A DNA stretch of 64,000 nucleotides from a virus. Shown piece by piece: positions 19,944 through 47,973 of this stretch. Every line of letters starts with the position of its first letter. Within the stretch, counting starts at the first letter, position 1. Below the pieces are notes generated by a model. That model was not told the DNA's origin and searched no databases. It worked only from the letters and a program-made list of their open reading frames with translations. The position numbers and the translations under genes were made by a program. Where the stretch lies: positions 1 through 64,000 of the IMG/VR virus record IMGVR_UViG_3300047496_000172; one strand, written 5' to 3'.

Positions 19944-20019
19944 GGTCGTGTTTCAATCTGGTTGATTGTATTCCGCTGTCTACGGAACAAGGCTGGTTCG
20001 ATTCCTGTCACGACCGCCA
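19944..20019 (+). tRNA. tRNA-Asp(GUC)
   Basis: GGTCGTG/CACGACC acceptor, TTCCG-CT GTC TA-CGGAA, GTTCGATTC, encoded CCA. Confidence 0.9.
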
Positions 20020-20027
20020 TTTTTGAT

Positions 20028-20103
20028 GCGGGTATGATGTTTAATGGTAGCATGTGCGATTGCCTGTCACACTGATTCGGTTCGAGTCCGAATATCCGCT
20101 CCA
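20028..20103 (+). tRNA. tRNA-Gly(GCC)
   Basis: GCGGGTA/TATCCGC acceptor, U73, loop TT GCC TG, GTTCGAGTC, CCA. Confidence 0.9.
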
Positions 20104-29407: not shown

Positions 29408-29958
29408 ATTCTTTGAATAGTAAATAAACTATTTGTTTTTGATACAGTTGGTTGACCTTCTACAACTGTAAAAGGAATATTTCCTACATTTCTGTTTCGT
29501 TTCTGACGACATGCTTCGATATATTCTGATTTTGTCGCGGAACGAATAAATCGAGAATTATTGAAACGTTTATCGATATTCCGAGAAAAAATTGTATCAA
29601 TCCAAACCCCGCCGGATGCTGGAAACCACACCAAGGCCCCAGGCTTCATTTCTAGGCCGCCTCTATCTAAAGAGATATATCCATCATCCAAATACTCACG
29701 AATGGTTCCAGCCTCATCAGGAATATAAGAATCAATAATATTAGCGGCAATGAACGATTCCATCTTCTTATAATTTATTTCATCATTTCGTTGCTTTTTA
29801 AGTTTTTTTAAAGCTAACCGATACCATGGAAGAGGTACTTGAACGGTTTCTAAATAATCGTCAGATATAGAACCTATATTATCAACTAAAAGACGAATAT
29901 CTGGTTTTCTTGTGGCTTCATAAAGCAATAAATCTATTTGTGATCTCATATTAATCAA
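29404..29958 (-). CDS. Hypothetical late protein
   Basis: Overlaps the gp14-like stop; MRSQIDLLLYE start. Confidence 0.55.
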   Translation of the reverse strand: MINMRSQIDLLLYEATRKPDIRLLVDNIGSISDDYLETVQVPLPWYRLALKKLKKQRNDEINYKKMESFIAANIIDSYIPDEAGTIREYLDDGYISLDRGGLEMKPGALVWFPASGGVWIDTIFSRNIDKRFNNSRFIRSATKSEYIEACRQKRNRNVGNIPFTVVEGQPTVSKTNSLFTIQRI

Positions 29959-31237
29959 ATGCTACTGCATTCCCAACCGCTTCTATAGTACCATAAGAAT
30001 TTGCAAAAGACATTCCACCCGCAGACACATTACTAATATCAGTGATTGATCCAACACCGGAGAACAATACTAATCCGGCACTTTCTGCTTCTCCGTCATC
30101 TTCTATATCACCAATAGCCGGAATAATATCCGCCATAGCAGGTTGCGTTAAAGTTATACCACCATAATTTTTATTAATGGCAACCGCATTCGAAAGACCT
30201 TGCTTTTGTGGAATTACAGTACCATCTGAAAATTCAGTATTATTATCGTTATTGATAAAATCATGAAGTAGACGATTTGCAACCGACCATTCTTGTTGAC
30301 GGCGGTCAAATTCTTGTATTTGCCAGCCATTTATAACTCGTTTGAAAAGAGTTGCTGGAGAATAATCAGTTCTTAAAAAATAATCTCCAACGGTTGGTGA
30401 TCCTGGGAAAGAGGTTCCTTGAGACAAAAGTTGACCATTAGGTGGAATGCCATCTGAAGCAAATACCCATGGATATTCTGAGCCCAATTCTGTTCCTGGC
30501 ATAATCCAAAATTGTTGCGTTTCAAAATAGCGATATTTAAAATTAGCAACCGCTGCATCTACAACAGAATTATTGATGCCTTGCTCAGTAGCAAGCGTGG
30601 ACATAAGACTTCCCAGAGTCCCTACATCATTCAGTCCAAACGGATCAGTGGCTTGTTGATTTAGAATATCAGCAAATTCCTGACTTGCAGTCATGGGAGA
30701 ACATTTAATTCGCCAAATATGTTGGAACCAAGTAGAAGAATAACCATCAGTAGCCCAGCTACCTTCATCTACAACAAAAAATGCATTGATGGCGGGAGCA
30801 TCACCTGGAATTTGATCGTCTCTACGGTGAGGAAGTTCAATAACATCTCCAGCAATAATACGACGACCGCACGCAGCAACCATATCATTTAAATGTATTT
30901 CTAAAAATAAAGTATCATCCGTAAGAAAAATACCAAATTGTTTCATATCAAAACTTATATCTTGTACGTTATAAGTTCCTCTTAATTCTCTAATGCATGG
31001 ATCATATTTACGATCTCTGTTTTCAAGAAATAACGTATCTTGAATACTCGAAATACCGCCAGCCATAATCGCTCCATTAGCGGCCGCTTGATCATAAACT
31101 CCCGCATACAAATGGACATATACCGCTGTTCCAGAAACATACATGAACCGAGAAATATTTTTATCCATGAAATTATAATTTTTACCGTGGCGAGCATTAA
31201 CACCATGCCATAAAGCCAATTTAGGCATGTTGTCCAC
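29951..31237 (-). CDS. Head closure/neck protein (T4 gp14-like)
   Basis: IQD.LFLENRDRKYD, FGIFL, GDVIELPH and GYS.TW..H.WR.KC.P; structural gene context. Confidence 0.7.
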   Translation of the reverse strand: MDNMPKLALWHGVNARHGKNYNFMDKNISRFMYVSGTAVYVHLYAGVYDQAAANGAIMAGGISSIQDTLFLENRDRKYDPCIRELRGTYNVQDISFDMKQFGIFLTDDTLFLEIHLNDMVAACGRRIIAGDVIELPHRRDDQIPGDAPAINAFFVVDEGSWATDGYSSTWFQHIWRIKCSPMTASQEFADILNQQATDPFGLNDVGTLGSLMSTLATEQGINNSVVDAAVANFKYRYFETQQFWIMPGTELGSEYPWVFASDGIPPNGQLLSQGTSFPGSPTVGDYFLRTDYSPATLFKRVINGWQIQEFDRRQQEWSVANRLLHDFINNDNNTEFSDGTVIPQKQGLSNAVAINKNYGGITLTQPAMADIIPAIGDIEDDGEAESAGLVLFSGVGSITDISNVSAGGMSFANSYGTIEAVGNAVAFD

Positions 31238-31871
31238 CGCTAATCTTATCTAATAATTCTGGTAATTTTCGAACAAATTGTTGATCGTTTCCAGGATTCA
31301 AATTAAACGAGTCATGCTCAAACATTATTGGAGGATGGCTCATTTTTCCATCCAAATATATCAACTCTAATTCTGTAGTCATATGATGGTATTTAGAATG
31401 AACAAAGATAGCCCTGCAATTAAACAAACGATCTTCCCAAATTTTCATAGCTTCTACCATTTCATCGAATATCTCTGGACATCCAAATACAGTGATACAA
31501 TTTCTGAAAAAATAACCATCAAAATTCCAAATAGTATATTCGGCTCTTCCTTTTTTACCAAGAGATAATTCATCCATCTTTTCTTGAAAGTAATCCGAAT
31601 GATGAAAATTCTTACCAAATGTCGATTTTTTAGGAATTGATACTTGAGGATTAGCTTTTGTCAAAATATCGGTAGCATCACTTATTTCTTTGAAAATTTC
31701 AGAATTTCCACCCATATCGGGATGGTGCTTTCTAGCAAATTCCTTAAATTTCTGCTTAATTTGCTCTGGCGTTTTATTCCTTGCATCGTATCCGTATTTT
31801 CGAAATACCGCTATAGCTTGAGGCACAGAGGTTGCCTCCATAACAATGTTGATAAAATCACGAATATTCAT
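31221..31871 (-). CDS. J-domain (DnaJ-like) protein
   Basis: IKQKFKEFARKHHPDMGG..E.FKEI..A..IL. Confidence 0.85.
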   Translation of the reverse strand: MNIRDFINIVMEATSVPQAIAVFRKYGYDARNKTPEQIKQKFKEFARKHHPDMGGNSEIFKEISDATDILTKANPQVSIPKKSTFGKNFHHSDYFQEKMDELSLGKKGRAEYTIWNFDGYFFRNCITVFGCPEIFDEMVEAMKIWEDRLFNCRAIFVHSKYHHMTTELELIYLDGKMSHPPIMFEHDSFNLNPGNDQQFVRKLPELLDKISGGQHA

Positions 31872-31942
31872 TTGATTATTTATCTAGTTGACAAAAGATT
31901 TTAATGAAGTAAAATATCTTCAATAATCGAAGGAGAAATCTG

Positions 31943-32377
31943 ATGCATAGTCAAATTTGGATGGATGGCTACAATTATTTGATGGCGCGGACGGCCAATC
32001 CTTATCCTCGTGACTCGGTGGAACATCGCGATTGGTTCGACGGTTGGACGCATCGTTTTCGTGGCATTCCGATTGATGAACCGCTTCCCCAAGACCTTTT
32101 TGATGAATATTGTGGAATTAGCGACGACGAACTTATTCGCCGTCACGCCATAGCGCGTCAAGCTCACGCAATGGCAGACGAAGCTGCCTTTGAAAATAGA
32201 GGCGAGATTCCCGAAGGAGAGATCATTCTTGCTGGTCCTGCACCAAAACGTGGGCGGCCTCCGGGTTCAAAAAACAAAACTATCGGAAATGGGAACAGCC
32301 TCTCTATGATTCCTACGGCTACCGGTCAAAAGCGGCGTGGGCGCCCGCCGGGTTCAAAAAATAAAAAGAAGGGTTGA
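31943..32377 (+). CDS. AT-hook DNA-binding protein with an RMF-like N-terminus
   Basis: Two RGRPPGSKNK hooks; N-terminal GY...NPY......W..GW. Confidence 0.7.
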   Translation: MHSQIWMDGYNYLMARTANPYPRDSVEHRDWFDGWTHRFRGIPIDEPLPQDLFDEYCGISDDELIRRHAIARQAHAMADEAAFENRGEIPEGEIILAGPAPKRGRPPGSKNKTIGNGNSLSMIPTATGQKRRGRPPGSKNKKKG

Positions 32378-32490
32378 CAGTTCCAACCTGCCTCTTTATA
32401 GAGAGGATACTCCTTTTGGAGCGGATGGCTTAAATGTCATTCTAAAGCTACTGATGCCAGTCGCCCCCCAACTGTGCATCGGTAGCTTTT

Positions 32491-32982
32491 TTAATTTTGC
32501 ATTACCATGTTTATATCGTCAATATAAGCATCCCCATTTACTGGAAATAATATCATTAGACCGTCATTGACGGTAAATCCTATTGGAAAATCTATAAATA
32601 TTCTGGCAAATATAGGATTTTGTTTAGCTCTTAACCAATCAGAGTGATTTAATTTAACCAATTCATCTAAACTATTTTCAGATGCTATACCATTCCCCCA
32701 AAATAAAACGTGTTCAGTATTTGCCCAACCTTGCATTGTATTTTCCGGAAAATTAACACCAAACAAATTTCCAGCATCATTGACCAGATCGCCATGCGTG
32801 GAATGCCAGTGATTTCCCATAAGCATATGACGATCACCCACAATGATCCTTGCTTGTTCGCTTTCAAACGTTTTTATAAACGAATTGAACTGATGCCGCG
32901 TTGGATCAAGAATGATAGGCGTTTTACCTCCATCTCTTAATTCAATCATCTCTACCTTTTCTAATAACTCTATGAAGCGCAT
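32491..32982 (-). CDS. Hypothetical late protein
   Basis: MRFIELLE start; TAAAT-like motif upstream. Confidence 0.55.
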   Translation of the reverse strand: MRFIELLEKVEMIELRDGGKTPIILDPTRHQFNSFIKTFESEQARIIVGDRHMLMGNHWHSTHGDLVNDAGNLFGVNFPENTMQGWANTEHVLFWGNGIASENSLDELVKLNHSDWLRAKQNPIFARIFIDFPIGFTVNDGLMILFPVNGDAYIDDINMVMQN

Positions 32983-33049
32983 ACATTAATTTATCCAAGA
33001 ATCTAAATATTGACTTGAAGTTGGATTTGATTCTAATATCACAAAATTA

Positions 33050-33585
33050 AGGTAAGCGTCGTTGTCAATACTTTGAGGACATCGATAAGTAAAATCATTC
33101 AGGGGCTATTGGTTCGCGGTTCCCCAACGCAAAACGAGTAGGACTGAGTTATCAGTCTTCATGAGACAGGATGAGTCGCAGAGGCAGACATTTGAGGCGG
33201 ACTGTGCTCTTAGAAGCGCGTCATCAAAGTAATGGCACCTCTCCGGTGTATAGCTCCGGAAAATTTGCACAAAAATGAGGGAGGAATCTGTGATAATTCA
33301 GAACCTCCCGGATACAATTTGTTCCTCAAAATGCAGATTGTATTGCTTGAAATTTTTATTTCATAACCGTTCAGATAATAAAAACTACTGAAGACGCAAG
33401 GCTTTAAAATAGCCCCGAGTCTAATATTTACCGTGAGTTTTATCGAGATTGGGTAGTCATATGCTGGTTGTCGGTGAACCCCCAGCTTCCGAGAAGTCGG
33501 ATCGCTACTTTTTGAGAATGCCGAATAAACGCATTAAATCTCTCCTTGTTAATTCTTTTATTAGGATTAACAGGGAGGGAGAAAG
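33050..33585 (+). ncRNA. Putative large structured non-coding RNA
   Basis: ORF-free gap of about 640 bp with nested long-range helices, an upstream TTGACT promoter element and a long 3' hairpin. Confidence 0.65.
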
Positions 33586-33621
33586 ATAATACCTCATTCC
33601 GCATGTATATATAAATATAAT

Positions 33622-34818
33622 ATGGATATTTTTGAGTTATTTGATTCGCCAGTTCAGACTAATCTGAAGCCAATAAAACGTAAAGCTTATAAAAAATTTC
33701 TTGCTGGAGAACGCGAAGACAATTTCCCTAAGAAATTCGTTAGAAGATTCAAAGTAGATAATAAATCATATGTTATATATGTTAACAACATTGACTTAAA
33801 TAGTTATGATATACAATATGCTTTAGTTACAAACAGAAAAGAATTTGATTTAAATTATTCTCCAACTAATGATAATAATAAAAAACATACTTTAGAAGTT
33901 TTTCATCATGTGGCCGCATACTTAAAGTTTTTCTTCTCTAAATTGAAACCCAATAAAAAATATACCATCACTTTTGGTGGAACGGTTTCGGATCAGCAAG
34001 ATTTATACAGAATCGCTGTTAGATATCTCAAAAGAATAGTTCCACCAGGATATGAAATAACATCTGATGATCGTAAGGTAACTATTACAAATAAAAACAC
34101 AATGGTTGAAACTACTTTGACTGAATTACGAAGAAATCCTGAATTAAATAAAAAACTCACGGTATTTGAACAACTCAGTAAATATGCTGGACAAAAAGAT
34201 GTGTTCGTATCTTTTACTGAAAATGTAGGAAGAATGAGTCATCCAACTGATTGGTCCCTGGATATGAAACAAAAGTCTTCAAATACTCATGGTCATAAAA
34301 TTGGTATAAATCCAAGATCAAATTGGAAATATGCTCCTTATGGGATTTTTGCTTATCCTATAGATTATGTCTTATCACAAAAGGGGGACATGCCGTTCGC
34401 GGCAGGAAGACCTTATCTTTATGTGTTTAAAGCTATAGGCAATTTTATTGATATAGATGCCTATAGTTATGATGATTTAGAACGAGATTCAGAAAAATTG
34501 CCTATGTTTGGTATTAATAGAAATGAATTTTTGAAGAACGCTATCGGGTTACCGGCAAAATATTTGTTTTTTAATTGTTTACGCAAACTTGTTACTAAAG
34601 AAAGTAAAAGTCGTTATTCTTCTACTACTATAGACACAATAGCATGGTCTAAATTAATCAGACAATTAGGTTATGATGGTATATTAGATTATGGTGGATA
34701 TAATATAACTCCAGATATAAAGGCACAAGCAGTATTTTTTACAATAAAAAGTATTAAGCCATTAGAGGTGATAGATAACAAAACTCACTGGCTTGGCCGC
34801 AATGGTGTAGATAAATAA
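33622..34818 (+). CDS. Two-domain late protein (putative internal virion protein)
   Basis: TATAAATA leaderless start, MDIFELFD, internal MVETTLTEL linker. Confidence 0.6.
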   Translation: MDIFELFDSPVQTNLKPIKRKAYKKFLAGEREDNFPKKFVRRFKVDNKSYVIYVNNIDLNSYDIQYALVTNRKEFDLNYSPTNDNNKKHTLEVFHHVAAYLKFFFSKLKPNKKYTITFGGTVSDQQDLYRIAVRYLKRIVPPGYEITSDDRKVTITNKNTMVETTLTELRRNPELNKKLTVFEQLSKYAGQKDVFVSFTENVGRMSHPTDWSLDMKQKSSNTHGHKIGINPRSNWKYAPYGIFAYPIDYVLSQKGDMPFAAGRPYLYVFKAIGNFIDIDAYSYDDLERDSEKLPMFGINRNEFLKNAIGLPAKYLFFNCLRKLVTKESKSRYSSTTIDTIAWSKLIRQLGYDGILDYGGYNITPDIKAQAVFFTIKSIKPLEVIDNKTHWLGRNGVDK

Positions 34819-34822
34819 AAAT

Positions 34823-47899: not shown

Positions 47900-47973
47900 T
47901 GGTGCCGATAGTAAGAATCGAACTTACATCTCCATATTACGAGTATGGCCGTCTACCACTGACATATACCGGC
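47900..47973 (-). tRNA. tRNA-Thr(CGU)
   Basis: GCCGGTA/TATCGGC acceptor, CCATA-CT CGT AA-TATGG, GTTCGATTC, CCA. Confidence 0.93.

Follow-up and report, generated by a model that had tools for sequence, protein, structure and literature searches.

Here we describe a 639-nt intergenic gap (32983-33621) in the genome of an environmental phage that probably holds a stand-alone gene for a large (~540-620 nt), pseudoknotted non-coding RNA of a new family. The element is conserved across phages of 38-63% GC as a unit independent of its neighbouring genes, and all copies of the family known so far come from one small clade of jumbo phages associated with soil and plants, relatives of Atu_ph07, PA5oct and 121Q. 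Since five related phages share this RNA and no match to a known family was obtained, it looks like a new and rare class. An earlier sequence-only reading of this DNA had proposed a large non-coding RNA that it could not assign, and this proposal is supported by the lack of an Rfam match, the existence of homologues and the covariation of base pairs among them.

The window, that is, the whole stretch analysed, comprises the initial 64 kb of an IMG/VR viral contig (106,578 nt) whose completeness is estimated by CheckV at 18%, which implies a jumbo phage. PHROG matches in the window to a tail sheath, a virion protein and a head-tail adaptor, together with the 36-43% identity of this adaptor to those of Atu_ph07, PA5oct, 121Q and their kin, place the contig in the Atu_ph07/PA5oct/121Q group. 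The sequencing runs that contain the stretch are two DNA runs, both of moss metagenomes that probably represent the sample of origin, with no RNA run among them, so that the expression, ends and strand of the RNA are deduced from the sequence only. The gap is flanked by divergent ORFs of 163 aa (32491-32982, - strand) and 398 aa (33622-34818, + strand), neither of which belongs to a Pfam or PHROG family. As the sequence-only reading had noted, there is no ORF in the gap, and the complementary segments that it listed are all in place; what it took for one of the largest gaps is in fact larger than any other non-coding stretch on the 106,578-nt contig, as judged with a crude gene call. No conserved reading frame is found among the homologues either, and where translations of the copies resemble one another, the similar stretches are spread over all six frames and switch between them, which indicates that the element encodes no protein.

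In the nearest relatives, the genes for the virion protein (29951-31237 in the window) and the adaptor are divergent neighbours ~280-650 nt apart; in the window 3.6 kb (31238-34822) lie between them. As this insertion is variable among relatives, the RNA sits in a hypervariable island, and the synteny with Atu_ph07 and PA5oct reveals no gap at the equivalent position in those phages. The interval behaves as an insertion hot-spot, other relatives carrying 1.6-3.4 kb of unrelated cargo there. Within the island of the window, a 144-aa ORF (31943-32377, + strand) has a good ribosome-binding site, a GC content of 51% against 38% for the contig, and two AT-hook-like GRP motifs, and belongs to no Pfam family. 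A TTGACA-type promoter-like site (31889-31920) lies on its 5' side and two terminator-like hairpins (32378-32490) on its 3' side, the second being common to the end of the convergent 163-aa gene. Regarding the 398-aa protein, its C-terminal 230 residues form a conserved domain with no assigned function that is also present in a few metagenomic proteins of 299-507 aa; the relative of this protein in the homologue-bearing contig G001 (L008 12452-12742) lies ~6 kb from the adaptor gene and not beside the RNA. A TATAAATA box of the T4 late-promoter type (33609-33616) stands directly 5' of the 398-aa start codon, and suggests transcription of this gene from a dedicated late promoter, with a very short leader.

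The + strand of the gap folds with a minimum free energy of -168.9 kcal/mol (z = -4.06, with 0 of 100 shuffles as good), and the fold of the - strand is weaker (z = -2.63). Because a single-sequence fold is not evidence of function and about 0.6 perfect 9-mer complements are expected by chance per 560 nt, the case depended on finding relatives. A blastn search with the gap as query gave no match among 50,697 phage records, and single-sequence queries of IMG/VR with the two flanking proteins and the neck protein retrieved no close relatives; for the 398-aa protein we found three distant relatives only, and no similar RNA is present at the four distant loci to which their alignment led. A search with the adaptor protein aligned to two cultured homologues brought up 80 related IMG/VR loci, and the complete records containing these loci were then searched with the gap DNA. 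Among them, the 415-kb contig G001 contains two colinear BLAST patches to the gap (80-84% identity, E 5.9e-8) in a genomic place quite different from that of the window, and the copy of G006 (locus L096) was located through an exact 19-mer from the best-conserved block; loci L151 and L155 belong to the same phage as L096, which is also represented by two JGI metagenome contigs. For the 3' 163 nt, a covariance model built on the G001 copy alone with a hand-drawn structure (R1) has a single match in the 64 kb, at 33429-33584 (52 bits, E 1.9e-14). The model R2, made from three sequences, scores 138.8 bits for the window, 193 for G001 and 182 for L096, and finds a copy in G005 (a 561-kb contig, 97% complete; 52.9 bits, E 1.5e-13) and another in G004 (a 147-kb contig; 40.4 bits, E 2e-10), both of which also show weak colinear BLAST patches upstream. 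Finally, the model R3 (five sequences, 163 positions, 36 pairs) returns one match only on the whole 106-kb contig, namely the window copy at 134.9 bits; a 3' domain of at least 40 bits against R3 is one of three features that we take to define the candidate family, the others being the pseudoknot and the upstream promoter-like site described below.

The five sequences of the comparison set represent four lineages, two of the five being 77% alike. The homologue contigs range from 49 to 63% GC, against 38% for the contig of the window, and the element is ~540 nt long in the window and ~570-620 nt in the relatives. Between G001 and G006 it retains 83% nucleotide identity, the flanking proteins showing 40-44% amino acid identity. 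The family is rare, with five contigs in 2.9 million covered by pattern searches. When viral, metagenome and genome collections were scanned for exact patterns, the hits beyond the known copies proved to be chance matches on checking with nhmmer or R3, and R3 on 50 more related records found none at E<=0.1 save one in Atu_ph07 (13 bits, E 0.095), taken as noise. These records include five complete related jumbo-phage genomes as well as Atu_ph07 and PA5oct, from all of which the element is missing by R3, and it is thus dispensable for the lineage.

The RNA element as a whole would extend on the + strand from ~33046 to 33585 (~540 nt), both ends being predicted. Its 5' domain (33046-33278) is variable, with only two hairpins confidently assigned in the window and extra ones in the relatives; MAFFT and RNAalifold alignments are unreliable in this region, which was compared manually. 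Hairpin P2 (33102-33125) has a 4-5 bp stem at the same place in all five copies, its third pair being G-C in four sequences and A-U in G005 and its fifth varying. Hairpin P4 (33242-33260), directly 5' of a conserved purine-rich junction, is made of five different stems in which five pairs are standard in 5/5 sequences and every position covaries. Hairpin P5 (33279-33309) consists of an outer 6-bp stem, an inner 4-bp stem and an 8-nt loop; double changes occur at three of the six pairs of P5a and at three of the four of P5b, and the sole unpaired cells are A-C, in two sequences. It is followed by P6 (33312-33343), whose stem differs in sequence in each lineage with 8/8 counted pairs standard in 5/5 copies, and whose 12-nt loop bears the 5' strand of a pseudoknot (33325-33331). 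The most conserved core (33363-33414), which corresponds to the 84%-identity BLAST patch to G001, holds near-invariant single-stranded blocks together with helix P7 (33368-33396), whose pairs were counted across copies, and a closing helix P7b (33400-33414). Inside the latter, all four relatives insert a 40-70-nt branched hairpin (P8) that is missing in the window. The 3' domain (33429-33584), the region modelled by R1-R3, contains the hairpins 33463-33486, 33488-33501 and 33517-33535 defined by the covariance models, and the terminal hairpin 33540-33579, after which comes a conserved purine run (33580-33585).

Much of the local folding pointed out by the sequence-only reading is found again in this architecture. 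The TCCGG/CCGGA and GGGAGG/CCTCCC hairpins correspond to P4 and P5 and, like the 3' hairpin, are conserved with compensatory changes; TCCGA/TCGGA (33488-33501) has three covarying pairs, and GCTGG/CCAGC (33463-33486) is conserved with one. The hairpin GACTGA/TCAGTC is the exception, with no clear counterpart in the relatives. The nested long-range helices fared worse. The 9-bp pair 33102/33408 gives way in the relatives to hairpin P2, which uses the same G-run, plus the closing helix 33400-33414, and the pair 33189/33324 is not conserved, the loop 33325-33331 pairing with 33510-33516 instead. The pair 33082/33440 is doubtful: it covaries in three sequences and none was found in G005 and G004; the 5' strand of G001 and L096 is no more than 7 nt from the -10 hexamer, at or before the predicted transcription start. 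The corresponding closing helix P1 (33083-33088/33440-33445) was counted and not accepted. The proposed fold was hence only partly right, since the long-range nesting described differs from the conserved architecture. Two other candidates were rejected as well, one between 33452-33457 and the segment that follows the pseudoknot, dropped because hairpin 33517-33535 covaries instead, and a pairing of the -35 region with 33433-33442, seen in G001 and inconsistent across copies.

Collecting homologues and testing covariation had been suggested as a check on the RNA reading, and the pairs of the four homologues found do covary above both shuffled and slid controls. Over the five sequences, the 77 proposed pairs are ~98% paired, a percentage inflated by the fitting of alignment A10 to the model and by the hand picking of the central helices, and 45 of them have compensatory double changes. 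The 3' domain (alignment A10) accounts for 36 pairs in six helices, 97.7% paired, with changes on both sides at 22 pairs; shuffles reach 9.2 +/- 2.1 double-change pairs (0/500 as high), and sliding the 3' partners by 1-3 columns leaves 5-8. The central domain, where helix coordinates were placed by hand in each sequence between conserved anchor blocks, contributes 41 pairs, 98% paired, with double changes at 23, against 35-45% paired and 4-7 double changes in the slid controls. At least 13 helices are maintained by compensatory changes, and whole hairpins are gained or lost between copies. Wobble pairs represent 38 of 369 paired cells (~10%, our own count over the 3' and central domains), and as G-U pairs would be A-C on the other strand, they fit the + strand only.

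The pseudoknot 33325-33331/33510-33516 appears as the strongest single feature of the predicted structure. It links the loop of P6 to the segment just 5' of hairpin 33517-33535, and 7/7 of its pairs are standard in 5/5 sequences, four being near-invariant and the three variable positions changing together in four lineages. Its 3' strand (33510-33516) also belongs to inverted repeat I6. Near-invariant unpaired junction blocks (33363-33377, 33396-33403 and 33433-33450), and the GNRA-type loops of the relatives, are likely residues of contacts or of a tertiary core. Within the last of these blocks, a 4-nt palindrome (33444-33447) is identical in four copies and in the most divergent one (G004, L162) is replaced by another palindrome, two changes there preserving the self-complementarity. 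It could represent an inter-molecular contact, on the evidence of that one sequence.

The TTGACT that had been noticed upstream lies at 33010-33015 and is followed, 18 nt downstream, by TAATAT. This sigma-70-type promoter-like site (33010-33039, + strand; -35 at 33010-33015, 18-nt spacer, -10 at 33034-33039) recurs as TTGAC(A/T)-18 nt-TAnnnn upstream of 5/5 copies at the same distance, and the 106-kb contig has only three sites like it. We infer that it is a promoter with a start near 33046. An 11-nt direct repeat (10/11 identical) has one copy in the -10 region (33029-33039) and the other inside the RNA (33417-33427, family D3); part of it is conserved upstream of 5/5 copies beyond the needs of a sigma-70 spacer, and its 7-mer occurs 18 times in the contig, none in a promoter-like context.

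The neighbours of the element change from phage to phage. The window, G004 and the group of G001, G006 and G005 have unrelated flanking ORFs, as seen for instance in the upstream divergent ORFs of G001 and the window, and G004 has no neighbour in common with any other copy. In G001, G006 and G005 a syntenic block places the RNA before a cluster ending in DnaJ and ClpB homologues, and in G001 and G006 a conserved convergent gene (E 4e-40) is found directly downstream of the RNA. The chaperone clusters of G001, G006 and G005, just downstream of the RNA (L098 247-3955, L155 3963-8095 and L168 2000-6217), encode a full-length DnaJ homologue with J domain and C-terminal domain and a ClpB-like double AAA+ protein, with 54-83% identity between phages. 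In the window, a J-domain gene lies 1.1 kb from the element, and it may be a trace of that neighbourhood or a coincidence.

Regarding known families, cmscan of the window with Rfam 15 at gathering thresholds detects two tRNAs only and nothing in the gap, and at E<=10 over 32800-33800 there is no family match, only scattered hits at E>1. The same search had been proposed as a check by the sequence-only reading, and it assigns the gap to no family at either threshold. Nor do the four relatives match any family at E<=10 or E<=1. ARAGORN finds three tRNAs and no tmRNA in the window, which together with Rfam bears out the remark that hallmarks of tmRNA and RNase P are lacking. The window tRNAs (19944-20103 and 47900-47973) are 13-14 kb from the RNA element. 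Our literature search found no description of such an RNA.

One alternative is that the element is a structured 5' leader or cis-regulatory RNA, controlling the 398-aa gene here and the DnaJ/ClpB cluster in the relatives. In the window the 398-aa ORF starts 37 nt past the element with no intrinsic terminator after the 3' hairpin, so that read-through into this gene is possible there, the J-domain gene is close by, and in G001, G006 and G005 the element is upstream of and co-directional with the chaperone cluster. Against this, a TATAAATA-type box directly precedes the 398-aa start codon, the immediate downstream gene differs among the window, G005, G004 and G001/G006, the conserved gene on the opposite strand separates the element from the cluster in G001 and G006, and G004 has neither DnaJ nor ClpB within 7.5 kb. 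Flanking genes that are not conserved and a convergent downstream gene in two relatives argue that the RNA is not a leader, and at 540-620 nt with a pseudoknot it would be far larger than known leaders; we regard this explanation as unlikely. It is very unlikely that the region is the remnant of a mobile RNA or a decayed gene, such as an ORF-less intron, an IS-associated guide RNA or a pseudogene. Such an origin would fit the unrelated genomic contexts in different phages and the location of the window copy in a 3.6-kb island hypervariable among relatives, but Rfam yields neither group I/II introns nor HEARO/omega RNAs nor any other family, the neighbours show no domain of a transposase, reverse transcriptase or nuclease, no frame is conserved, and the strong purifying selection on structure argues against decay. 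Moreover, the divergent flanking ORFs leave no exons to splice, and the ORFs around the element in G001 and G006 are divergent and convergent, so the exons expected of an intron are lacking there too.

The region could also act at the DNA level, as a replication origin, a packaging site or a divergent promoter/operator whose hairpins are cruciforms or protein-binding repeats. Its position between divergent genes, its size, larger than that of any other gap of the contig, and promoter-like hexamers on both strands would fit such a role; however, no iterons or tandem repeats occur in the gap, only short two-copy repeats, the GC-skew profile has no gap-specific switch, compensatory changes maintain the hairpins and the pseudoknot, and the ~10% of G-U among paired cells pair only as + strand RNA. 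A replication origin had been named as the fallback should transcript and covariation be lacking; with homologues at hand and base pairs that covary this is not needed, and we consider a DNA-level role highly improbable. Chance complementarity in an AT-rich spacer with no function is practically excluded: single folds of random sequence also look structured and a 9-bp long-range pair has an expectation of ~0.6, yet the element is conserved across 38-63% GC, the models match at E 1e-10 to 1e-14, and covariation is far above both controls.

For the RNA gene that we favour, the promoter-like site suggests transcription by the host RNA polymerase, which would mean that the RNA is made probably early in infection, and the RNA would act in trans. 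Size, pseudoknot, GNRA-type loops in the relatives and near-invariant unpaired junctions across 38-63% GC suggest a defined tertiary core, which may contact a conserved partner or itself. If the RNA gene is granted, the role to which we would give most weight, at somewhat less than even chances, is that of a ROOL/GOLLD-like scaffold or decoy that binds a conserved host or phage macromolecule, or that self-assembles. A ribozyme is a much less probable candidate, and a cis- or operon-linked regulator would be slightly less probable still; the remainder goes to something else. More tentatively, and with doubt outweighing belief, the RNA may belong to an undescribed class of large catalytic or self-assembling RNAs of an environmental jumbo-phage clade, deployed early against a host process. 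Under this catalytic or self-assembling reading, the near-invariant junction blocks would be an active site or an inter-molecular interface, the latter idea being motivated by the palindrome 33444-33447 that becomes another palindrome in the most divergent copy.

To our knowledge, very few bacterial or phage RNAs above 500 nt have intricate conserved folds. They include the rRNAs, RNase P, tmRNA, introns, OLE, GOLLD, ROOL and a handful more, and nearly all that we know of proved to be a ribozyme, the core of an RNP or, in the latest cases, an RNA-only nano-assembly. Another family, confined to jumbo phages, with its own predicted host-type promoter and maintained over a 25-point GC range, is a new test case for the role of large RNAs in infection. 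Its rarity and the lack of a cultured host are limits; the covariance model and the five sequences, together with a secondary structure that is partial but includes a well-supported pseudoknot, provide a basis for searches, probing and cryo-EM.

Several known RNAs share part of this description. The large RNAs already described from big phages, tmRNA, RNase P RNA and self-splicing introns, are likewise pseudoknotted and can be phage-encoded, but ARAGORN and the Rfam models, permuted forms included, give no tmRNA match, neither the window nor the four relatives match the covariance models of bacterial, archaeal or other RNase P RNA, and group I/II introns are set apart by the lack of an Rfam match and by divergent flanking ORFs with no host gene to splice. 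OLE (~610 nt) is of the same size class and also has highly conserved junction nucleotides among covarying helices; it is encoded in the chromosomes of anaerobic extremophilic Firmicutes, next to genes for its dedicated protein partners (PMC3413148), whereas our element is phage-borne and has neither an Rfam match nor a conserved neighbouring protein gene. GOLLD, which is expressed as its own RNA, resembles it in being large, ornate, phage-associated and with no function assigned; the present element is ~200-250 nt shorter, has no Rfam match and no adjacent tRNAs, and its conserved blocks are unrelated. ROOL (~580 nt) resembles it in size, phage-borne location, many hairpins, pseudoknotted long-range contacts, stand-alone gene and lack of an assigned function. 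ROOL forms RNA-only homo-oligomeric cages (PMC12286853) and occurs in rumen and Firmicutes settings, usually beside tRNA genes in phage or prophage DNA (PMC5737381). Our element, in contrast, belongs to soil- and plant-associated jumbo phages, is not next to tRNAs (the nearest at 13-14 kb) and does not match the Rfam model of ROOL at E<=10 over 32800-33800 or in the four relatives. The comparison with ROOL and GOLLD made by the sequence-only reading therefore stands for kind and size, not for membership. ROOL and GOLLD exemplify large, ornate, phage-borne RNAs with no function assigned (PMC5737381, PMC12286853), and our best reading of the sequence evidence is that the element represents a new family within this known kind, distinct from both.
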